Assembly (NCBI GenBank): GCA_964510025.1
Contig: CAZDZV010000006.1
Location: forward strand, 11,143-75,142
Direction: 5' to 3'
Source of the DNA: an uncultured Methanosarcinales archaeon
Lineage (GTDB): Archaea; Nanobdellota; Nanobdellia; Woesearchaeales; DATDXC01
DNA length: 64,000 nt
Below the pieces are notes generated by a model. It did no database searches, was not told where the DNA came from, and saw only the letters and a program-made list of their open reading frames with translations. Positions 50,951 to 59,507 of this stretch are shown here, piece by piece (the stretch's first letter is position 1; every line of letters starts with the position of its first letter). The position numbers were made by a program, and so were the translations under genes.

Positions 50951-51271
50951 ATGTTTTGTCCAAAATGCGGTTCAATATTGGTGCCAAAAAAAGAAGGTAA
51001 AAAGACAGTAGTTAAGTGCTCCTGCGGCTATAAGGCAAAAAACCAGGAATCTACCATAATCCGTGAGGAGGTGGTGGATAATACTAAAGAAGTAGAGCTT
51101 ATTGATGATGATAAAAGCCTTGAGACCCTGCCTAAGATGAAGGCAGAATGCCCAAAATGCCAGAACAATGAGGCTTATTTCTGGGAAGTGCAGACCAGAG
51201 CTTCAGATGAGCCCGCAACCAAATTTCTTAAGTGCACGAAATGCAAGCATGTGTGGCGGGACTATAATTAA
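50951..51271 (+). CDS. tfs: Transcription factor S (TFS / RpoM-like)
   Basis: N-terminal CPKCG...CSCG Zn ribbon; C-terminal CPKCQNNEAYFWEVQTRASDEPATKFLKCTKCKHVWRD (TFIIS-type ribbon with the acidic tip). Start at MFCPKCG. Confidence 0.85.
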   Translation: MFCPKCGSILVPKKEGKKTVVKCSCGYKAKNQESTIIREEVVDNTKEVELIDDDKSLETLPKMKAECPKCQNNEAYFWEVQTRASDEPATKFLKCTKCKHVWRDYN

Positions 51272-51813
51272 AGTATATAAGGGTTATTTCTAGCTTGCTC
51301 GAGAACACCTACTAGCTGCACCAGGCCCTCAGCTCCTGGAAACCCATTGCCTATATAGCCTCTTGCTCTAAGAATATCGCATGCGTCCCTGAATTCGTCC
51401 CCGCCGCCTGTCACCATCACAACAGCAATACGTTGGGTAGCAGCATCTCTCCCAAGCAAAGCCAGGGTTTCAATGCCTGATTCATCATGAGAATAAGACA
51501 GGGTGTTTCCTGTTCTTGGATGTACAATCTGGATTCTCCTGCTATCAACAGGCTCTCCTTGAACTAATCTTTTTGTGCTATAATTTACAGCTAAGAAAAC
51601 CATCAGTGGATCTAGTTCCCTTACCCTATCAGCTACAGACTCAGGGGTTGTTTCGGCTGAAACAGCTTCTGCAACAGCATCATAACCAGCATCCTTCAGC
51701 GTACTTATGTAAAGATCCGCTAACTCAGTTCTAGGATGAAACACTGCAATCTTATTTGGCATACAGGATATGTATAAAGCTTTACTATATAAATGTTTGT
51801 ATTTAGTTATCAC
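51268..51813 (-). CDS. Hypothetical alpha/beta protein (NYN/LabA-like?); GC-rich relative to its neighbours
   Basis: IAVVMVTGGGDEFRDACDILRARGY resembles the NYN C-terminal block. Probable start at MPNKIAVF. Confidence 0.35.
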   Translation of the reverse strand: MITKYKHLYSKALYISCMPNKIAVFHPRTELADLYISTLKDAGYDAVAEAVSAETTPESVADRVRELDPLMVFLAVNYSTKRLVQGEPVDSRRIQIVHPRTGNTLSYSHDESGIETLALLGRDAATQRIAVVMVTGGGDEFRDACDILRARGYIGNGFPGAEGLVQLVGVLEQARNNPYIL

Positions 51814-52036
51814 TTTTAAGTGATGACTGCCCTACAAACCTAGAATTCTGCAATTTTAGGCTTTAATGCGTCTTTCATGCAAGACATGAATAACGACTCT
51901 GTGCTTCTCTTTGATCGGCCCACATCGGCTTTCTATTTTCATTGAGCCCATTTTATTTATATATAGGCAAGATAATGCTTTGATAATATATAAAAGCTGT
52001 GTTTATTTTGGGGAATTTGTGAGTCGACAAATCCCT

Positions 52037-52966
52037 CTAAATTATGATGTCTTTTAGGATTCCTTGTTTTACTAATTCGATATTTATCAAGTAATCATTA
52101 TGCAGAAAAGTTTCAAATAATGATTTCTTTGTTGTTTTCCATCCAAGACCATCGGTAATCCAAATTAAGTCGATTCCTTGTTTTCTTAAGAAGTCTGATA
52201 AGTACTGATATTCACCAGCTGTTGACTTTAATTTTGACCCACCGCCACTATAATAATTGGTTTCAATTACAAAAATCTTATTTTTTGATTTCTCAAATAC
52301 TGCAAAATCAAATATTCGATTGGTTTTATCAAGTTCAATATCAAAATTCCATTTCTCCTTGATCTTTTTTTGTGTTGCTTGCGGAATGTAGTCCAAGTTA
52401 TTTTTCTCTGAGAATTTCAGTATTATCTTCTCAACAATGCTCTCCATTGATTGACCTGTACGGTTTTTTCTTGCATTTGTATCCATTCCTACTTCGACAC
52501 CAAAGCAATAGTCAACAATATTCTTAACATTTTTATCTTTGAATATACTTTTTAATCCCGATTCCTTAAAGAAAATTAGTATGTCTTCTCTTATATCTGA
52601 AGTAAGCTCAACATCAGGATTAAATAATTCCAGTTTACTACCAGACTTTAGCTCTTCAAAATCATCAATGATGTTTACTGCCTTTAATTTGCTTTTTCTG
52701 ATAGCAATGAGAATTGGAAGAACCTTTCTTACATTTGGATATTCAGTAATAAGTTCAATGAATTCTTTTTCTATATCGCTTTTTCCAATTAACACATTAA
52801 GAAGATTTAGCTCTTTTTCAATTAAGTGAGTGTTATTCTTAACTTTCTCAAAATCAACAAAATAATCCCATGTAAATATGGAATCTGTCAAAGTTTGTAC
52901 AAGATAGTCAAATATCCCTTTCTCATCTTTTAGGTTTAATTTTTCATATGTTTGTAAGTATTTCAT
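52037..52966 (-). CDS. Type II restriction endonuclease, R.DpnII (DpnB)-like; GATC specificity inferred
   Basis: YCFGVEVGMDTNARKNRTGQSME and FDFAVFEKSKNKIFVIETNYYSGGGSKLKSTA closely resemble my recollection of R.DpnII blocks. Confidence 0.7.
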   Translation of the reverse strand: MKYLQTYEKLNLKDEKGIFDYLVQTLTDSIFTWDYFVDFEKVKNNTHLIEKELNLLNVLIGKSDIEKEFIELITEYPNVRKVLPILIAIRKSKLKAVNIIDDFEELKSGSKLELFNPDVELTSDIREDILIFFKESGLKSIFKDKNVKNIVDYCFGVEVGMDTNARKNRTGQSMESIVEKIILKFSEKNNLDYIPQATQKKIKEKWNFDIELDKTNRIFDFAVFEKSKNKIFVIETNYYSGGGSKLKSTAGEYQYLSDFLRKQGIDLIWITDGLGWKTTKKSLFETFLHNDYLINIELVKQGILKDIII

Positions 52967-52975
52967 TTCTTCACC

Positions 52976-53809
52976 TTAATAGTTTGTAACGACAACTTCA
53001 TTTATCTTTCCCCTTTTGTCCCCATTACAATTGATCATTCTTGTTGCCTGAACAAAATGGATTTCATAATTAGGATATAATTCTTTAATAAATTTTGTAT
53101 CGCTATTGCTTAACATCACAAGGCAACCATTATCATCCAGTTTTTTGAATACTTCAGCAAGCTGTTTCTGCTCTTCTTCTAAAAATGTGTCTTTTGTGTA
53201 GGTTGTAAAACTCTTTCCTTTTTTAAGTGGATAATAAGGAGGATCAAAATAAATAAAGTCTCCTTTATTTGCTAGATTAACAACCTTTTCGAAAGACATT
53301 ACTTTAATCGTAACATTTTTCAATAATTCTGAAACTAGTCTTAATCTATCTTCTTGGACAATATCTGGATTTTTGTAGGAACCCATCGGAACGTTGAATT
53401 TTCCCTTTGAGTTTACTCTATATAGTCCATTGAAGCAAGTCTTATTTAAATAAATGAATCGTGCTGCTCTTTCAAGAGAAGGTAATTCTTTTGGATTTGT
53501 TGCACGAATTGTTAAATAATATTTTTTGCCTTCAACCATATGATATTCCTTATGCTGTTTTAATTCAATTATTAATCTCTCTACATCACCCCTTATGGTT
53601 TCGTAAGCATTGATTAATTCTTCATTTATGTCTGAAATAATAATTTCAGAAGGATTAAACTTTTGAATTATATAGAAGAAAACTGCTCCGCTACCAACAA
53701 AAGGCTCTAAATAGCGATTAAACTTCTTTGGAAATAATGGCTCAAACTGTTCTAAAAGTTGACCTTTACCGCCTGCCCATTTAACAAATTTGGGGATTTG
53801 GATATTCAT
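52976..53809 (-). CDS. Dam-family N6-adenine DNA methyltransferase (alpha class, DpnM-like)
   Basis: KWAGGKGQLL, EPFVGSGAVFF (motif I), FIYFDPPY (motif IV). Confidence 0.85.
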   Translation of the reverse strand: MNIQIPKFVKWAGGKGQLLEQFEPLFPKKFNRYLEPFVGSGAVFFYIIQKFNPSEIIISDINEELINAYETIRGDVERLIIELKQHKEYHMVEGKKYYLTIRATNPKELPSLERAARFIYLNKTCFNGLYRVNSKGKFNVPMGSYKNPDIVQEDRLRLVSELLKNVTIKVMSFEKVVNLANKGDFIYFDPPYYPLKKGKSFTTYTKDTFLEEEQKQLAEVFKKLDDNGCLVMLSNSDTKFIKELYPNYEIHFVQATRMINCNGDKRGKINEVVVTNY

Positions 53810-55563
53810 TTTTTATTCTCCACCAATTCAGAAACAAATACTTTTAAATTGTCTGTTACCAAATAACTTTTTTCTAATAATTTTTCACATATCATCTTAC
53901 AAATATACTTTTTCAACCCTTCATCACAGAAATTAATCACTTCTTTATCTGAATTTTTACTTTTTATCTTTTCAGTTGCAAAATTCAAAATTTCACTATT
54001 ATTATATGCCTGATTTGTTCTTTCCTTAAATTCATCATAAGCCATAATAGTATAGTGGTTTCTTTTATCTTTTAAAAATTCATTAATTGTTTCTAAAATT
54101 AATTTTGGTTCAAAAATATCTTCAATCTCAAAATTAGCTACATTATTTTCATAATTATCAAAACGCTTAACATATTTACATTCTACACTAAAACAGTTAT
54201 ATGTTTTTGACTTTATTTGTTGAAATATACTTTTTCCAGCTGTATCAAAATCAAAAAGTGCGATAATTTTTGGCTTAAAAGATAGATTATTGCAAAACAA
54301 TTCTAGAAATTGTAGGTAACCTTTATATTTATCAACCCCTCCTGCAACAAGAATATTAGGTTTGATAATTTTTAGTTGTTCAAATAATGCAAATAAATAA
54401 TCTTTATCTTCCTGTCCTTCCACCAATAGATTGAAAGGCAAGATCTCCCAAGAATCATTCTTAGAAATTCCTAGGTGCTCTTTGACCATGTACACTTTTT
54501 CAATACCTGCAGCATTATTTATTCTTGTATTTACTTCATAGAATTTCTCGTCTTTTTTCCTGATGTATTCTTTTAATTGTATATCTGCTTCTAGCAAAAC
54601 TACTTCTTCCACTTTCTCAAGCCGTATAAAATTTGGAGAATGTGTATTAATAATGGTTTGATATTTTTTTGAAAGTTGAAACAAGATATCACTTACCCTT
54701 TTCTGAAGTGATGGTTGAAGAAATGCTTCTGGCTCGTCAAACCCCCAGATAATCTCTTTTCCAGTTTTATCAGATATATATTCGATTAAAGAGTATAAAA
54801 CAATTCTCTGAATTCCGCTCCCTTTTGTTTCAATTTTGTTTGAATTGCTATCAATCAGAGTAAAATCAATTAAATCAGATAAAACTTCTCGTAAGTTAAT
54901 GTATTTTGGGAATAGAATTTCTGCCCTCCATAATGAATTATCTATCCCATTAATTCCATTTGTATATTTTTTGATATTTTCAGTAAGTTCTTTTTTTATT
55001 TCTACTAATGCCTTTTCAGATTCTTCAATAAAAGTATTCAAATGTTCCATTGGTTTTGTTTTTCTTTTTCTCAGATTATCCAGGGGAGTTAATAATTCAT
55101 TACTAACAAACCTTGCAATCTCTTTAGAAGTGTCAATATTACTAGCTTCGACCATAATAAATTGATATTTATTTAGAACATTTTTACAATCTTTATCGCT
55201 CATTAGGGTTTCTTGTTTACCTTTTACTTTTATTTTGCCCTCTATCGTTAATGATTTGATTCCCTTTTTCTGCTCTTTATATGTTGTAGAAATAGTAATT
55301 CTATCTTGATTTTTATTAACAAATTCAGCTGTGATTTTTGTTCTGAATCCTGCTCCTCTTTTTCCATAGTAGATATGATGAGGAATATCCTCGTTAGCAT
55401 TAAATTTATTTTCGTCTAACGAGAAGAACAAATTTATAGCTCGTAATACATTTGTTTTACCAACATTATTTGAACCACAAATGATTTTATAGTTATCATT
55501 AGAGAAATCAATCTTTAACTTACTTATTGATCTGTAATTACTTATACTTATTTTCTTTAACAT
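53806..55563 (-). CDS. OLD-family nuclease (class 1): N-terminal AAA_15/ABC-type ATPase plus C-terminal Toprim
   Basis: Walker A GSNNVGKTN; Q-loop/signature region; Walker B IIWGFDEPEAFL; H-loop INTHSP; Toprim LLVEGQED and FDFDTAG. ATGA overlap with the Dam gene. Confidence 0.75.
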   Translation of the reverse strand: MLKKISISNYRSISKLKIDFSNDNYKIICGSNNVGKTNVLRAINLFFSLDENKFNANEDIPHHIYYGKRGAGFRTKITAEFVNKNQDRITISTTYKEQKKGIKSLTIEGKIKVKGKQETLMSDKDCKNVLNKYQFIMVEASNIDTSKEIARFVSNELLTPLDNLRKRKTKPMEHLNTFIEESEKALVEIKKELTENIKKYTNGINGIDNSLWRAEILFPKYINLREVLSDLIDFTLIDSNSNKIETKGSGIQRIVLYSLIEYISDKTGKEIIWGFDEPEAFLQPSLQKRVSDILFQLSKKYQTIINTHSPNFIRLEKVEEVVLLEADIQLKEYIRKKDEKFYEVNTRINNAAGIEKVYMVKEHLGISKNDSWEILPFNLLVEGQEDKDYLFALFEQLKIIKPNILVAGGVDKYKGYLQFLELFCNNLSFKPKIIALFDFDTAGKSIFQQIKSKTYNCFSVECKYVKRFDNYENNVANFEIEDIFEPKLILETINEFLKDKRNHYTIMAYDEFKERTNQAYNNSEILNFATEKIKSKNSDKEVINFCDEGLKKYICKMICEKLLEKSYLVTDNLKVFVSELVENKK

Positions 55564-55579
55564 TATTTCCCCAGTATAG

Positions 55580-56365
55580 TCAAATAAGCTTATTCTTTAT
55601 AGAGTTTATCCTTTTTATTGTGGTTTTTAAAAAATTCTCCTCTTTATCAATACCTATAAATTGTCGATTAAGCATACTTGATACAACCCCTGTAGTACCA
55701 GATCCATTAAATGGATCTAGTACAACGGCATTTTCTTTTGTTGAAGATGCGATAATTCTTCTCAATAATTCTATTGGCTTTTGAGTGGGATGCTTTCCAT
55801 GAGTCTTTTCGCTCATTGGAGTTAACGGAATATGCCAAATGCTCCTCATTTGTTTACCTTTTGGAGCAATATTATCATCCCATTCCCTCATTAAATCATA
55901 ATTAAAAACATGAGGAATCTTCCCATCTTTTCTTGCCCATAAAACAGTTTCATGTGCATGAGCAAAATACCTGCAGCTTAAATTTGGTGGTGCATTAGGT
56001 TTAAACCATGCAATTTCATTTAATAATTTGAAATTGAGCTTTTGTAACGCATATCCTACTTGGTATATATTATGCATTGTCCCAGAAATCCAAATAGTAC
56101 CATTATCTTTTAATACCTTACGACATGCATTTATCCATTCATAAGTGAATTTGAAATCTTTGTCTATTCCATTAGATTTATCCCAGTCTGCTTTATTAAC
56201 TGAGACCATTTTACCAGCCCTGCAAGAGATCCCTCCGTTAGATAGGAAATAAGGTGGATCTGCAAAAACCATATCAACAGATTTTTCAGGTAATGTGTTT
56301 AGAATACTAATACAATCATTATGGAAAAGTTGCACAGTTTCAGACTTGTAATAGGGTTTAATCAT
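55580..56365 (-). CDS. N6-adenine DNA methyltransferase, beta class (DpnA / M2.DpnII-like)
   Basis: MVFADPPYFLSNGGIS (motif IV first), NGTIWISG, NLSCRYF, GKHPTQKP, VLDPFNGSGTTGV (motif I last). Confidence 0.8.
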   Translation of the reverse strand: MIKPYYKSETVQLFHNDCISILNTLPEKSVDMVFADPPYFLSNGGISCRAGKMVSVNKADWDKSNGIDKDFKFTYEWINACRKVLKDNGTIWISGTMHNIYQVGYALQKLNFKLLNEIAWFKPNAPPNLSCRYFAHAHETVLWARKDGKIPHVFNYDLMREWDDNIAPKGKQMRSIWHIPLTPMSEKTHGKHPTQKPIELLRRIIASSTKENAVVLDPFNGSGTTGVVSSMLNRQFIGIDKEENFLKTTIKRINSIKNKLI

Positions 56366-56495
56366 TTATAAATCTAATAAAGTCCTTTATTATAAACTTT
56401 GTTATTAAACTTTCGAAATATTACTATTTTCTTTGCAATGAGCCGTCTCATCGCCCCCTCTCTTCGCAGATCCTTCTATATACAATGCAAGCCTT

Positions 56496-57113
56496 ATGTA
56501 TTACATACTCCGAACGTTGCTTATAAACGATGGGAGCCTTAAATTAGGTGGTGATAAAATGACCTTGGAATATAAGCGTGAACCTCTAGAAGAGGATGAA
56601 GTGTTGGCTTTAAGGAGAGCATCTACTTTCTTTGAAGAAGAATTAGTTATAAACTGTCTGTTAGATACTGGCATGAGAGTATCAGAGCTTGCCAACCTAA
56701 GAGAAGAAAATATCTCCTGGCAAAGAAACTGTATCAGCTTGATAGGAAAAGGTAATAAGCGTAGGGTGATCCCAATGAGTAAAAGAGTAAGGCTACTCCT
56801 ATTAGACTGTTTTTCTCACAATAATACCAAATTTCCATTAGCCATGCGAACAATCCAAAAATATGTTAAAATCGTGGCAGACAAGGCAAGGATAAGAAAA
56901 ACTGTAAGCCCTCACGTGCTAAGACACACATTTGCAGTAACCTATCTTCACAGAGGAGGCAATTTAAGGGCATTACAGGCTATTCTAGGGCATAGTTCCA
57001 TAACAACTACTGATATTTACCTCAACTACTCAGGGAAGCGAGTTATTGATGATTTTCAAAGAATATGGAATGAGCCAGATACAAATAACAAGTTATTGAC
57101 GGGGTATTTTTAA
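56496..57113 (+). CDS. Tyrosine recombinase/integrase (short XerC/D-like)
   Basis: R..(box I) ...HVLRHTFAV...LGHSSITTTDIYL (R-H-R-Y catalytic set). Confidence 0.75.
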   Translation: MYYILRTLLINDGSLKLGGDKMTLEYKREPLEEDEVLALRRASTFFEEELVINCLLDTGMRVSELANLREENISWQRNCISLIGKGNKRRVIPMSKRVRLLLLDCFSHNNTKFPLAMRTIQKYVKIVADKARIRKTVSPHVLRHTFAVTYLHRGGNLRALQAILGHSSITTTDIYLNYSGKRVIDDFQRIWNEPDTNNKLLTGYF

Positions 57114-57115
57114 AA

Positions 57116-58162
57116 ATGGCAAAAAACATCTTCTTTTTTATTATTAAGCATGGAGCTTTGCTTGGCATAGCATTTCCATTTATATTATCCATAAAAATAA
57201 GCACATCTCCTTTTGGTTTGGTACATTTAGTGTTAACCCTAATTATTTTGGAATACTATGCTTATTCCATACACCAGTTTTTATTTGATTTTCAGGATAA
57301 AAGAAGAAAGTTAAGAATAAAAAAATTTGAAGAGTCTAAACTGATTGATAAATTCCTAAATGCTAAATTAGATTACTCTAAATCTTCAGAACTATTAGAG
57401 TTAATTTCTATTATAAAGAATACAGAATTCTTGCCAAAATTAAAAGAAATGTATAATCAGAAAATCGAAGAAAAAATGATTTATGCTGAAAGACTACTTG
57501 AGAAATTACAGCACCAAGAAGAAATACAAGAACTTGAGCTGAAGAAAAGTCAACTTAATAACAACATTCAATATCTAATAAAGCAAGAAAAGGAGATGAC
57601 TCAAACAGAAGAAGAAAGGAAGGAAGATCTAAAGGGGGAGATGAATCTTGAAGAAAATAAGGTGTTTGAAGAGTCAGATCTTACTGATGAAAAAGCAAAT
57701 TTTCTTCTGGAAGAAGGATACGAACAAACCAATCAATATTCAATTATGGAAGAAGGAAATATCTCGGTTTATATCAAACCCGTACTTAATCATTCAAAAT
57801 CACATATGTTTTTGGTTTACGAATTAAAGCAGATTTTGGAACATTGGTATGAAGCTGAAAACATAGAAGAGCATCTAACAAAGGATGCAGACCTTACTTT
57901 CAAGTATAACAAGAAAATCTACGCTCTGGAAGTTGAGACAGGAACATTGCTGAAAAAGAAAGACCAAGCTAGAGATAAAGTAGAATATCTAAATAGGAAA
58001 TATCAAAACAGATGGATGTTCATAGTAACAAATAGAAACCAAGTGGCTAAATACAAGAAATTAGGAATAGTCAGTGAGAGAAAGCAGGTGACAAAAAATC
58101 TTGATAAGATGCTAAAACTCCGCACCCCCCTAGATCGGGTGTCTGAGGAATTTCCCGACTAA
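57116..58162 (+). CDS. Membrane-anchored coiled-coil protein with a C-terminal putative nuclease-like domain; hypothetical
   Basis: Two N-terminal TM helices; long E/K-rich coiled coil; C-terminal HMFLVYELK...KDADLTF...YALEVETG... Confidence 0.45.
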   Translation: MAKNIFFFIIKHGALLGIAFPFILSIKISTSPFGLVHLVLTLIILEYYAYSIHQFLFDFQDKRRKLRIKKFEESKLIDKFLNAKLDYSKSSELLELISIIKNTEFLPKLKEMYNQKIEEKMIYAERLLEKLQHQEEIQELELKKSQLNNNIQYLIKQEKEMTQTEEERKEDLKGEMNLEENKVFEESDLTDEKANFLLEEGYEQTNQYSIMEEGNISVYIKPVLNHSKSHMFLVYELKQILEHWYEAENIEEHLTKDADLTFKYNKKIYALEVETGTLLKKKDQARDKVEYLNRKYQNRWMFIVTNRNQVAKYKKLGIVSERKQVTKNLDKMLKLRTPLDRVSEEFPD

Positions 58163-58215
58163 AAAATCACTAAAATAGTCACTTATTCAATCTCCGTATA
58201 ATATCACTTCTTATA

Positions 58216-58977
58216 TTACATAAGGCTATTTTCCAGCTTCTCAATTTTTACAAGCATCTCGTACTTCTCTTTGAATTCTTCCATACTTAACTCTCCCTCC
58301 ACATACTTCATCTTGAGTGCTTCCAATGGTTCAATTGTAGATTCTTTTGTGGATTGCTTCGGCTCTCTCTTCGTACCAAAAGCCATGTTTATCTTGTTTT
58401 GTAAGTCTTTATTTGTAATGTAAGCATAGATTTGGGTAGTATGGATATCAACATGCCCAAGAGATCTCTGAACATAGTAGAGGTCGACTCCTTTTTCTAG
58501 TAGATAGGTTGCATAGGTATGTCTCAATGTATGAAAACTGTAAGCATACCTTTGCTGTCCAAGTTGTGTTTTGAAAGTCTCGATACTAAGCTTAGCTTTC
58601 AGAAGATATTTTCTAAAATGCTTGCTTAAAATGTTGTTAGCAAATGGTCTTCCAGAATAGTTTGAAATAAAATACTCTGATTCATCTGAAAGCCTGAACC
58701 ATTTCTCAATCAATGGTTTGACTTTTTCAGGTAGCATCACTACTCTGTCTTTGCTACCTTTTCCCTGTCTTACAATTACCCTTTCAGCTTCAAGATCAAC
58801 ATCTTGTTTTTTCAGATTGCAGACTTCACTTATACGCAGACCACAAAACAAGGCAATAATACAGCCCATAAATATATTTGCATCATCAATCTGCTCAAAA
58901 AGTGCCATTAATTGCTTTTTATTGAAAACATTAGGTAGTTTTCTTTTTGTATTTGGTCTCCCGAATCTCATCTTCAC
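58216..58977 (-). CDS. Tyrosine recombinase/integrase
   Basis: HTLRHTYATYLL...LGHVDIHTTQIYAYI; box I LRISE. Confidence 0.8.
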   Translation of the reverse strand: MKMRFGRPNTKRKLPNVFNKKQLMALFEQIDDANIFMGCIIALFCGLRISEVCNLKKQDVDLEAERVIVRQGKGSKDRVVMLPEKVKPLIEKWFRLSDESEYFISNYSGRPFANNILSKHFRKYLLKAKLSIETFKTQLGQQRYAYSFHTLRHTYATYLLEKGVDLYYVQRSLGHVDIHTTQIYAYITNKDLQNKINMAFGTKREPKQSTKESTIEPLEALKMKYVEGELSMEEFKEKYEMLVKIEKLENSLM

Positions 58978-59381
58978 ATCCTCGCAATAAGGTTTAATCC
59001 ATGATCCCTGATCACTTGGGTTACATCTTCAAACCTTTCCTGTCTTCGCTTTAAAGCCTCAGAAACCGCTTTTTTCTGCGATATAGTCCTCTGCTTGATC
59101 TGGAACTTGATGTCAATCGGAATCTTTTCTAAAAGCAACCATCTGTAAACCGTAAAGGGGTTATAGCTACTTTTGATAAGAAAATCATACAACTCCTTCT
59201 CTAGCCCAAGAACTAGAAACTTCTTCCTATTATAATGAAAATGAGCTAATTTACCCATAATCTGCAAGAAATCACGACTCTCTAGCTGAGGAAGACGACT
59301 ATATACCAATTTCCTCAAGCATTCTAGCTTCTGGACAAAATTTTTCTGCATATCTGCTTGTTTCACGACCGACACCCCCAT
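58974..59381 (-). CDS. Hypothetical protein co-transcribed with the integrase (4-nt overlap)
   Basis: ORF only; basic; no recognised motif. Confidence 0.35.
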   Translation of the reverse strand: MGVSVVKQADMQKNFVQKLECLRKLVYSRLPQLESRDFLQIMGKLAHFHYNRKKFLVLGLEKELYDFLIKSSYNPFTVYRWLLLEKIPIDIKFQIKQRTISQKKAVSEALKRRQERFEDVTQVIRDHGLNLIARM

Positions 59382-59507
59382 GTCAGCTCAATAAGAAAGA
59401 AAAGACCGACGTGAACTCACAAGATGCAGAATCTATAAATCTTTCTATTATTTACTATTAATTAGTAATAACATATCCTTAAAAATATTGGATTATCTAT
59501 ACAATAT

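Follow-up and report, generated by a model that had tools for sequence, protein, structure and literature searches.

An OLD-family ATPase-Toprim nuclease gene lies between the two methylase genes of a DpnII-type (GATC) restriction-modification (R-M) cassette in the window, the 64,000-nucleotide stretch of archaeal DNA that we analyzed. On balance, this OLD protein is probably an autonomous nuclease that adds a second layer of defense to the R-M operon in which it is embedded, accessory rather than obligate and yet selected. Its clade occurs repeatedly beside GATC-cutting Type II genes and inside Type I operons, which suggests that the pairing is selected, while the many clade members that stand alone point to the autonomy of the OLD itself.

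The four-gene operon and its island

The cassette consists of four co-directional genes on the minus strand, whose open reading frames (ORFs) match exactly the coordinates given in the earlier note:

55580 to 56365, minus strand: beta-class N6-adenine DNA methyltransferase (DpnA-like, second methylase; betaMT), 261 amino acids (aa), operon gene 1
53806 to 55563, minus strand: OLD-family ABC-ATPase/Toprim nuclease, 585 aa, between both methylase genes
52976 to 53809, minus strand: DpnM-type Dam methyltransferase (alpha-class, D12; GATC), 277 aa
52037 to 52966, minus strand: R.DpnII-family restriction endonuclease (REase; GATC), 309 aa
56386 to 56396, minus strand: TATA-like element TTTATAATAAA, read from the sequence, about 27 nucleotides (nt) upstream of the methylase ATG

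Profile matches and nearest structures agree with the identities that the note had assigned to all four products, and every motif quoted there was found in the translations. According to the ORF listing, the betaMT-OLD and Dam-DpnII spacers measure 16 and 9 nt, and the Dam start and OLD stop share 4 nt (ATGA), as is also seen in the sequence. The tight packing is thus real, as is the 4-nt overlap that had been taken to imply one transcript, whereas co-transcription of OLD with the R-M genes is what we infer from this spacing together with the TATA-like element, which may serve as an archaeal promoter for a leaderless transcript of all four genes.

The 261-aa methylase matches PF01555 N6_N4_Mtase (9e-61) and the PADLOC model MTase_II (1.3e-99), and has its DPPY motif ahead of FxGxG, as in other beta-class enzymes. 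It is 52 to 58% identical to the middle gene product of canonical Dam-betaMT-DpnII cassettes; this cassette orthology predicts GATC specificity for an enzyme whose nearest solved relative is CcrM (6pbd, 1e-63). The 277-aa Dam matches PF02086 (7e-68) and TIGR00571 dam (1e-91), with DpnM as the closest solved structure (2dpm, 2.7e-76), and the 309-aa REase matches PF04556 DpnII (3.5e-90) and PADLOC REase_II (2.5e-92). Depletion of GATC, proposed earlier as a genome-wide check, was assessed in the window and proved mild (206 sites observed versus 258 ± 14 expected), which suggests that the R-M system may be recent or of putative activity.

The 585-aa protein matches PF13175 AAA_15 (1.4e-24), and its top PADLOC model is Old (4.5e-29, spanning residues 2 to 446). 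Walker A and B, the signature, and the H-loop are all unvarying in a 43-sequence alignment, in which the invariant residues include K36/T37, K247-G-S-G-x-Q252, D276/E277, and H308 in the ATPase and E382, D386, D438xD440, and E481/D482 in the Toprim domain. As these catalytic residues are invariant, the intact ORF is not the degenerate pseudogene that had been considered as a possible objection. No Pfam model for Toprim scores above threshold (DUF3226 alone appears, below its cut-off), and the invariant motifs together with the fold match are therefore the basis of the Toprim assignment. The AlphaFold2 model (mean pLDDT, 84.8) has no large helical insert within the Toprim domain, and its best match among PDB folds is Thermus scotoductus (Ts) Class 1 OLD (6p74; E = 6e-19), with GajA second and the retron Eco8 OLDs next.

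A GC drop, two recombinases, and archaeal flanks place the operon on an integrase-bearing, probably horizontally acquired island in an archaeal chromosome:

51900 to 59400, no strand: low-GC island with the operon and recombinases, delimited by the GC drop, borders approximate
56496 to 57113, plus strand: short XerA-like tyrosine recombinase, catalytic domain only, 205 aa, divergent from the operon
57116 to 58162, plus strand: 348-aa ORF, family unassigned by profiles
58216 to 58977, minus strand: second short XerA-like tyrosine recombinase, 253 aa

GC content is 0.28 to 0.30 at 52 to 56 kb and 0.30 to 0.36 at 56 to 59 kb, compared with 0.38 to 0.46 in the archaeal flanks. The 205-aa recombinase matches PF00589 (7e-28) and recomb_XerA_Arch (6e-40, under its cut-off), the 253-aa recombinase matches the same two models (1.5e-32 and 1.3e-39, respectively), and the 348-aa ORF has zero Pfam, NCBIfam, or PADLOC matches. 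The sole candidate for border repeats is a weak 14-nt direct repeat (51901 and 58261). In agreement with the archaeal host assumed earlier, three flank markers (ribC_arch, sigpep_I_arch, and TFS_arch) score over curated cut-offs. Woesearchaeota names occur in the 90%-identity cluster of the 261-aa methylase, and the host of the island is probably a member of Woesearchaeota.

Sister cassettes and contexts of the OLD clade

The gene order, whose conservation had been proposed as a check, was found again in one other genome (L001), with the identical betaMT-OLD-Dam-DpnII arrangement, an OLD 71% identical to that of the window, and R-M proteins 85 to 88% identical. Another cassette (L084) keeps this order but lacks OLD (betaMT, a 25-nt spacer, Dam, and DpnII), and its R-M proteins are 82 to 85% identical to those of the window; for the REase, identity is 85% to both L001 and L084. 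The existence of a near-identical cassette without OLD makes the gene an insertion/deletion polymorphism in the 25-nt spacer. As an obligate unit, the hybrid R-M/OLD module put forward in the earlier note is contradicted by L084, by the presence of OLD in only 1 of the 80 DpnII cassettes listed (∼98% lack it), and by the roughly half of the clade that stands alone.

The OLD clade is small, comprising 76 representative clusters, and neighbors were sampled at ∼48 loci. Because sampling was seeded with the window protein and covered at most 80 loci per scan, the following proportions are rough and phylogenetically nonindependent: about one-third of the loci directly adjoin GATC-type Type II R-M genes, about one-sixth lie within Type I operons, and about half stand alone amid housekeeping genes. 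The Type II-linked copies (about 17 loci, spread over about 13 lineages) show at least eight differing gene orders; the R-M-linked OLDs are dispersed across the OLD tree, and 4-nt overlaps are frequent at their loci. The REases beside OLD are of DpnII, Sau3AI/MutH-like, and BglII-family types, plus an unnamed REase flanked by Dam and a beta-class methyltransferase (MTase). The arrangements include the following:

Dam-betaMT-DpnII-OLD (L023)
Dam-betaMT-Mrr-DpnII-OLD (L036)
betaMT-Mrr-betaMT-DpnII-OLD (L011, L167)
Dam-DpnII-OLD-betaMT (L038-L040)
Dam-DpnII-MTase-OLD (L133)
Dam-DpnII-DUF7004-OLD (L170)
betaMT-MutH-like-OLD (L015)
Sau3AI homologue (4pxg, 2e-83) with C5 MTase and OLD (L026)
OLD-BglII (L013)
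hsdS-OLD-hsdR, Type I (L003, L020, L024, L025, L166)

These contexts bear on whether OLD is an unrelated passenger, that is, a selfish or neutral hitchhiker that reached the spacer by accident, defense genes merely being prone to cluster. The presence/absence polymorphism between the window and L001 on the one hand and L084 on the other, the rarity of OLD in DpnII cassettes, and the split or decayed copies at L027, L037, L045, and L053 fit such an origin. It is nevertheless improbable given the linkage to GATC-type R-M genes, which recurs across about 13 lineages with varied gene orders and start/stop overlaps, the conservation of every catalytic residue in the alignment, and the retention of OLD in L001 despite its lower identity than the rest of that cassette. 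The occurrence of relatives beside GATC or Type I systems in many unrelated microbes suggests instead that the pairing is selected but nonobligatory.

Possible links between OLD and R-M

The near-exclusive GATC bias among the Type II contexts is more than simple layering accounts for, a hint that some more specific mechanism connects the two. OLD could take DNA that the neighboring REase targets or has cut as its own substrate, for example, by loading on 5′-GATC ends or nicks and degrading restricted DNA 5′ to 3′, which would make the cassette a true composite system. All four REase types beside the clade in Type II contexts recognize GATC-containing sites, DpnII, Sau3AI, and BglII/BstYI leave identical 5′-GATC overhangs, and translational coupling between OLD and the REase gene is frequent (L010, L011, L023). 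Many hosts are CPR or DPANN organisms with reduced repair repertoires. The P2 and Ts OLDs are 5′-3′ exonucleases on linear double-stranded DNA (PMC10568477). Coupling is still fairly unlikely, as Type I operons, whose enzymes cut at random sites, harbor the clade too, R-M neighbors are missing from about half of its members, nearly all of the DpnII cassettes listed lack OLD (including L084), and OLD and DpnII identities are weakly correlated (r = 0.25, with two close pairs excluded). If true, it would make restriction irreversible in hosts without RecBCD/AddAB.

By analogy with PrrC and PARIS, OLD might instead be a guard that stays silent while R-M works and, once a phage neutralizes or evades restriction (e.g., with an anti-restriction protein), cleaves DNA or tRNA, killing or arresting the cell. 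Precedents exist: PrrC, nested in Type I R-M, is activated by Stp; PARIS, an OLD-type ATPase and a Toprim protein encoded separately, is triggered by Ocr; and P2 Old is triggered by RecBCD inhibitors. The hsdS-OLD-hsdR order in at least five loci mirrors the position of prrC. Stand-alone OLDs, however, imply that the protein is maintained without an R-M partner, and we know of no protein inhibitors of DpnII-type enzymes, which renders a guard role unlikely.

A further reading takes OLD as a methylation-sensitive restriction nuclease and the adjacent methylase as its antidote, such that an MTase and OLD would together form the functional unit and the two methylases in the window would serve two nucleases. 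Genes overlapping or within about 10 nt of each other occur as Dam-OLD in Deinococcus (L018), OLD-Dam in Streptococcus (L057, L058, L060, L065), and MTase-betaMT-OLD on a Woesearchaeota contig (L055), and no separate REase was identified directly beside the pair in these loci; the window, L001, L016, L038-L040, and L133 likewise have OLD immediately next to a beta-class MTase. This reading is highly improbable considering that a nearby methylase is missing for about half of the clade, that the partner methylases are chemically diverse (m6A Dam, beta-class N6/N4, and C5 in L026), that Type I-embedded copies adjoin HsdS/HsdR, that REases are present nearby in L060 and L065, and that L084 has both methylases without OLD.

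Known systems and the proposed role

The earlier suggestion that this combination is undescribed stands in part. We found no literature description of an OLD within a DpnII or other Type II cassette, whereas the general concept of defense nucleases or ABC ATPases embedded in or guarding R-M is already known (PrrC, PARIS, guilt-by-embedding). Class 1 OLD genes have been described as isolated and, in a review, as not proximal to other defense genes (PMC10568477; PMC6755086), whereas the window OLD clade is often embedded in R-M. "Guilt-by-embedding" covers defense genes within R-M, BREX, DISARM, and Hma, including the ATPase-TOPRIM HEC-04 (bioRxiv 10.1101/2024.01.29.577857); the Type II (DpnII) host cassette of the window lies outside that survey. 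Other defense genes embedded in DpnII cassettes are GmrSD, Mrr, and DndB-like, which fits this published phenomenon.

Like the Class 1 OLDs (P2 Old, Thermus scotoductus OLD 6P74, Vibrio cholerae [Vc] OLD, and E. coli YbjD), the window OLD is a single polypeptide with an N-terminal ABC ATPase that contains a helical insertion and, toward the C terminus, a Toprim plus helical domain, without a helicase, reverse-transcriptase, or split-Toprim partner, although it is only about 18% identical to Ts OLD and, by sequence profile, lies just as close to the GajA ATPase domain. GajA of Gabija (GajA/GajB, Class 2 OLD) is the best PDB sequence-profile match, in the ATPase half (5e-17), and the second-best fold match, but the window has no adjacent UvrD-like GajB gene and its OLD no Toprim helical insert. 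PARIS (AriA/AriB, Class 4 OLD) shares the OLD-type ABC ATPase and Toprim chemistry and is conceptually a restriction backup triggered by anti-restriction proteins, but it is split in two genes, typically in P4/P2 hotspots, whereas the window OLD is one gene that AriA matches weakly (8ux9, 4e-4). PrrC/EcoprrI and embedded genes share an ABC-ATPase-based nuclease gene nested in a multigene R-M operon, and in Type I systems the clade is likewise found at the hsdS/hsdR junction; the effector is a fused OLD Toprim here and an anticodon-nuclease domain in PrrC. The Streptococcus pneumoniae DpnII cassette (dpnM-dpnA-dpnB) shares the DpnM-type Dam, the beta-class second methylase, and the PF04556 REase, while the window cassette differs in its order (dpnA-like, old, dpnM-like, dpnB-like), inserted OLD, archaeal host, and integrase island.

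As an accessory second-layer nuclease, the single-gene OLD would have inserted precisely in the spacer between two methylase genes, on a horizontally acquired, integrase-associated defense island in a DPANN-type archaeon. Both methylases would mark host GATC sites, and R.DpnII would cut unmethylated incoming DNA. The OLD, presumably a dimeric ABC ATPase gating a two-metal Toprim nuclease, would act on DNA, by nicking or 5′-3′ degradation as reported for the P2, Ts, and Vc OLDs, or on tRNA, whose cleavage by P2 OLD is said to have been shown recently, and it would deal with invaders slipping past GATC restriction. The embedded position would ensure joint expression and joint transfer of both layers.

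The DpnII-type cassette and its island

Profile searches upheld the identities that the earlier note had given to four co-directional minus-strand genes, at exactly the coordinates it proposed. These genes and their neighbors are as follows.

51268-51813, minus strand: 181-aa ORF with a GTG start and normal GC content, immediately 3′ of the R-M operon; no match in Pfam or NCBIfam
52037-52966, minus strand: DpnII endonuclease (REase), 309 aa; PF04556, 3.5e-90
52976-53809, minus strand: DpnM-type Dam/D12 methylase (Dam), 277 aa; PF02086, 7e-68; TIGR00571, 1e-91
53806-55563, minus strand: OLD-family protein (OLD), 585 aa; AAA_15, 1.4e-24; PADLOC 'Old', 4.5e-29
55580-56365, minus strand: beta-class methylase (betaMT), 261 aa; PF01555 N6_N4 methylase, 9e-61
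56496-57113, plus strand: XerA-like recombinase, 205 aa; catalytic domain only
57116-58162, plus strand: 348-aa island ORF; no match in Pfam, NCBIfam, or PADLOC
58216-58977, minus strand: XerA-like recombinase, 253 aa; catalytic domain only
58974-59381, minus strand: 135-aa island ORF; no match in Pfam or NCBIfam

Counted from the betaMT end, the junctions of the cassette are a 16-nt gap, a 4-nt ATGA overlap (the OLD/Dam overlap already reported from the sequence), and a 9-nt gap. A TATA-like element, TTTATAATAAA, lies ~27 nt upstream of the first ATG of the operon and, together with these tiny spacers, suggests that the four genes form a single leaderless transcript. The closest solved structure to the window Dam is DpnM itself (2dpm, 2.7e-76), and the closest solved relative of the betaMT is CcrM. 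In canonical Dam-betaMT-DpnII cassettes, the second methylase shares 52 to 58% identity with the window betaMT, for which a DpnA-like role can therefore reasonably be inferred. The window contains a PF04556 REase, a DpnM-type Dam, and a second, beta-class methylase, but the order betaMT-OLD-Dam-DpnII departs from that of the canonical DpnII cassette, which has three genes only (dpnM-dpnA-dpnB). Gene order was highly variable across 80 DpnII cassettes. The R-M part is a DpnII-type system with a noncanonical gene order and, judging from homology and a mild shortfall of GATC, probably recognizes GATC and protects it by m6A. The window has 206 GATC sites versus 258 ± 14 expected from dinucleotide shuffles, a mild avoidance only, which says little. 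Inside the island, 9 sites were counted, with ~11 expected from base composition.

The GC content of the operon is 28 to 30%, compared with 38 to 46% in the flanks, and the operon is adjoined by two short XerA-like tyrosine recombinase genes and two ORFs without a family match. Neither recombinase has the N-terminal SAM-like domain, and the pair flanks the 348-aa ORF; perhaps they are remnants, or together an unusual mobile element with two recombinases. A D...E-x-E pattern that recalls PD-(D/E)xK nucleases can be seen by eye in the C-terminal third of the 348-aa protein. A search for att-like direct repeats at the island borders yielded a single 14-nt pair, at 51901 and 58261 with 13 of 14 positions matching, that may be fortuitous, and no tRNA genes were found in the 64-kb window; the borders are therefore given as approximate. 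The chromosome around the island is archaeal: the flanking genes scoring above curated cut-offs encode an archaeal riboflavin synthase, an archaeal signal peptidase I, and transcription factor S. At 90% identity, the betaMT falls in a cluster with 'Candidatus Woesearchaeota' names.

Integrity and class of the OLD protein

The window protein is a member of the OLD family, with both the ATPase and the Toprim features. Its N-terminal part matches the ABC-type ATPase models AAA_15, AAA_21, and SMC_N. The C-terminal Toprim domain is evident from its motifs (a catalytic Glu, DxD, and extra acidic residues) and from its fold, and the only Pfam Toprim-type model to match was DUF3226, below threshold. 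Across 43 aligned homologues, the ATPase residues (Walker A K36/T37, signature K247GSGxQ252, Walker B D276/E277, and H-loop H308) and the Toprim acidic residues (E382, D386, D438xD440, and E481/D482) are invariant. The ORF is intact and retains all of these residues, which sets aside the degenerate pseudogene that the earlier note had allowed for. At four other loci, frameshifts or stops break the OLD gene into two or three ORFs (L027:7986-9725, L037:399-2172, L045:7992-9262, and L053:2539-4349; handles beginning with L denote the other loci compared, metagenomic contigs among them), and Type I R-M genes lie nearby at two of these loci. In some genomes, the gene is evidently decaying.

The top fold match of an AlphaFold2 model of OLD (pLDDT, 84.8) was the Class 1 OLD of Thermus scotoductus (Ts; 6p74; Foldseek, 503 columns, E = 6e-19), followed by GajA and then the retron-Eco8 OLDs. 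Profile E values placed Ts OLD (2.7e-14) and GajA (5e-17) at a similar closeness; in PADLOC, 'Old' was the best model, with weaker matches to GajA among the best 25 of 74 models. OLD resembles the Class 1 proteins of Schiltz and Chappie in length (585 aa, in a class of about 520 to 600 aa), in a Toprim domain that appears, in the model, to lack the Class 2 helical insert (strands within 377-464 alternate with single helices), and in having no adjoining UvrD-like helicase, retron RT/ncRNA, or separate Toprim gene. Its neighbors are two methylases, one REase, and recombinases, and the GajB UvrD-like helicase that follows the GajA-type OLD in Gabija is absent from the locus. Unlike a Class 1 OLD gene, it is not isolated but embedded in R-M genes, both here and in about half of the sampled clade (its close homologues). 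OLD could correspond to one of the unclassified clades (U1 to U11) of PMC12796447.

Association of the OLD clade with restriction operons

The clade comprised 76 representative clusters at E ≤ 1e-30 among 1.84 billion, and a word-indexed search with OLD gave 179 matches at 36 to 71% identity. Among ~48 distinct loci with readable flanks, ~17 had OLD directly beside a GATC-family Type II system, in ~13 lineages that are <50% identical to one another, which answers the concern that the ATPase might not co-occur with such cassettes. The Type II partners were essentially all of the GATC family: DpnII, Sau3AI/MutH-like, BglII-family, and one unnamed REase type. Seven or eight other loci had OLD inside Type I or Type I-like operons, and in ~22 it stood alone, with housekeeping genes around it or within a conjugative element (e.g., L002, L004, L014, L028, L041, and L168).

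Gene arrangements at R-M-linked loci of the OLD clade
betaMT-OLD-Dam-DpnII: window, L001
Dam-betaMT-DpnII-OLD, 4-nt overlaps at every junction: L023
Dam-betaMT-Mrr-DpnII-OLD: L036
betaMT-Mrr-betaMT-DpnII-OLD: L011, L167; partly L010
Dam-DpnII-OLD-betaMT: L038 to L040
Dam-DpnII-MTase-OLD: L133
Dam-DpnII-DUF7004-OLD: L170
betaMT-MutH-like REase (short)-OLD: L015:563-3784
Dam-x-MTase-OLD: L016
OLD..Dam-REase-MTase: L005
Dam-OLD: L018
Sau3AI homologue (4pxg, 2e-83), C5 methylase, and OLD: L026:5289-9725
OLD beside a BglII-family REase and its methylase: L013:7983-11599
hsdS-OLD-hsdR, typical Type I placement: L003, L020, L024, L025, L166
Further Type I or Type I-like loci: L051; L045 (disrupted copy)

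More distant OLD relatives (25 to 26% identity) show the same theme, with OLD-Dam in Streptococcus and MTase-betaMT-OLD in another Woesearchaeota contig. At four Streptococcus loci (L057, L058, L060, and L065), a 26%-identical OLD overlaps the start of a DpnM-like Dam gene whose product is 40% identical to the window Dam, followed at two of them by a C5 methylase and a 524-aa Type II REase; these loci may be a counterpart of the same theme. In Kingella denitrificans (L042:4414-9791), OLD directly follows the type I-C CRISPR-Cas genes cas8c-cas7-cas4 after a 37-nt spacer and may be embedded in the cas operon.

In a neighbor-joining tree of OLD, the R-M-linked members were scattered, and one Flavobacteriia subclade was uniformly stand-alone. 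The correlation between OLD and DpnII divergence fell from a Mantel r of 0.75 to 0.25 once two close pairs were removed; we therefore rejected deep co-inheritance as a general explanation, and the linkage looks repeatedly re-formed. A phage-borne origin was likewise unsupported, with a clade member in 2 of 2.9 million IMG/VR contigs and no R-M homologues detected near the clade members of these two.

The same four-gene order recurs in L001, a 939-kb metagenomic contig (JGI Ga0612041_0032) and the only other genome found with it, where the R-M proteins are 85 to 88% and OLD is 71% identical to those of the window and a XerA-type recombinase lies upstream. This contig has a bacterial-type AspRS (aspS_bact, 745 bits), yet its recombinase is of the XerA_Arch type, above the cut-off; transfer of the cassette between DPANN archaea and CPR-like bacteria may have taken place. 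Locus L084:2364-4949 (VAPK011015743.1) has the order betaMT-Dam-DpnII with R-M proteins 82 to 85% identical to those of the window and a spacer of 25 nt in place of the 1.76-kb OLD gene, i.e., a natural OLD-less allele. The presence of OLD in that spacer is thus polymorphic, by insertion or deletion, and an obligate R-M/OLD unit is contradicted by the same R-M order without OLD. From the R-M side, we collected 80 DpnII-anchored metagenomic loci; in 43 of them, the sequence ran on for 1.8 kb or more past the downstream end of the cassette, and 22 had that much on both sides. Only one (L133) carried an OLD gene, and thus DpnII cassettes work without it.

DpnII cassettes also host other guests. 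A GmrSD-type Type IV enzyme lies between Dam and DpnII at L121:1248-2900 and L131:935-2584, Mrr genes occur in the cassettes, including between methylase genes (L011:5311-6210, L036:1825-2664, and L167), and a DndB-like guest is present at L159:1892-4177. A DUF6996/6997 protein is also among the embedded guests, and L128:6881-8536 is another DpnII-cassette locus with an embedded defense gene. Given these guests, small Type II cassettes are embedding hubs, as Type I and BREX systems are. "Guilt-by-embedding" has been published for Hma, BREX, DISARM, and Type I systems, where the commonest embedded guests are ABC-ATPase nucleases, including the ATPase-TOPRIM fusion HEC-04, with PrrC as the classic case (bioRxiv 10.1101/2024.01.29.577857). 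DpnII cassettes are similar in that their guests occupy the same positions as OLD.

Role of OLD beside restriction

The association is asymmetric: OLD is often found with R-M, but R-M is rarely found with OLD. Together with the empty site in L084 and the stand-alone subclade, this pictures OLD as an accessory guest gene and not an obligate subunit. On balance, we lean towards an autonomous OLD nuclease that is embedded in, co-expressed with, and co-transferred with the DpnII operon and that supplies a second, methylation-independent layer of defense. OLD would act on its own behind DpnII restriction, independently of methylation, and its place in the operon would ensure joint expression and transfer. 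Judging from its relatives, its target may be DNA or tRNA: P2, Ts, and Vc OLD have 5′-3′ exonuclease and nicking activities on DNA, and P2 OLD cleaves the tRNA anticodon stem. That OLD is a pure passenger is quite improbable: its recurrent linkage, the overlaps of start and stop codons, and the conservation of its catalytic residues are hard to square with this.

What the Type II partners have in common is a GATC-containing site and not the REase fold or the methylation chemistry, and this bias is not explained by simple layering; we infer its strength from raw locus counts, uncorrected for how common GATC systems are in Type II R-M as a whole. The cuts of DpnII, Sau3AI, and BglII/BstYI share one 5′-GATC overhang. 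With partners that are essentially all of the GATC family and a shared overhang, three more specific models stay alive. Coupling of OLD to REase-made ends would account for partners of different REase types sharing GATC-family sites, some with identical 5′-GATC overhangs, but we consider it unlikely. OLD resembles PrrC in being nested within an R-M operon; a guard of the PrrC/PARIS type is rather improbable, and in its PrrC-like form the R-M enzyme would keep OLD latent until an anti-restriction factor set it free. A model in which the MTase is an antidote for OLD is highly improbable. More broadly, and only tentatively, the clade might be a new context-based class, 'R-M-embedded OLD', with an activity coupled mechanistically to restriction. 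Such proteins could be recruited or activated by the 5′-GATC ends or nicks of DpnII, Sau3AI, MutH-like, and BglII-type enzymes, and also by Type I cleavage, or they could be PARIS/PrrC-like guards that fire upon evasion of restriction.

In the literature searched, which included only a minority of subscription-journal papers, OLD genes within DpnII or other Type II cassettes were not described, in line with the claim that the combination is undescribed, nor was any archaeal defense OLD found to have been characterized (PMC12796447). Three other leads were rejected. The B component of PD-lambda-5 matches Dam, but the system is described as a compacted RM+Abi, and the passages on it mention no OLD-like partner. 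PA1939 (OLD) and PA2735 (a GATC(N)6GTC methylase) of PAO1 have been shown by others to be independent and thus set no precedent for an OLD/methylase pairing. A Tn-seq study of Xanthomonas that deals with OLD has no bearing on R-M coupling. Of the hybrid R-M/OLD defense module put forward in the earlier note, the pairing is real and recurrent; OLD is, however, accessory, and the concept was anticipated by PrrC, PARIS, and embedded-defense work.

To our knowledge, a phenotype has so far been described only for P2 Old, Vc OLD, and YbjD among Class 1-like OLD nucleases, and the clade bears on their trigger and in vivo target. Its repeated, GATC-biased wiring into restriction operons gives a concrete, testable hypothesis for trigger or substrate, and the window or L001 forms with L084 a natural plus/minus pair ready for experiments. 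The clade contradicts the textbook view of Class 1 OLD genes as separate from other defense genes, and it carries the principle of embedded defense genes, known from Type I, BREX, and DISARM systems, over to small Type II cassettes. If the 'R-M-embedded OLD' class were real, the Type II cassette would be a two-stage immune operon, spread over bacterial phyla and into DPANN archaea.
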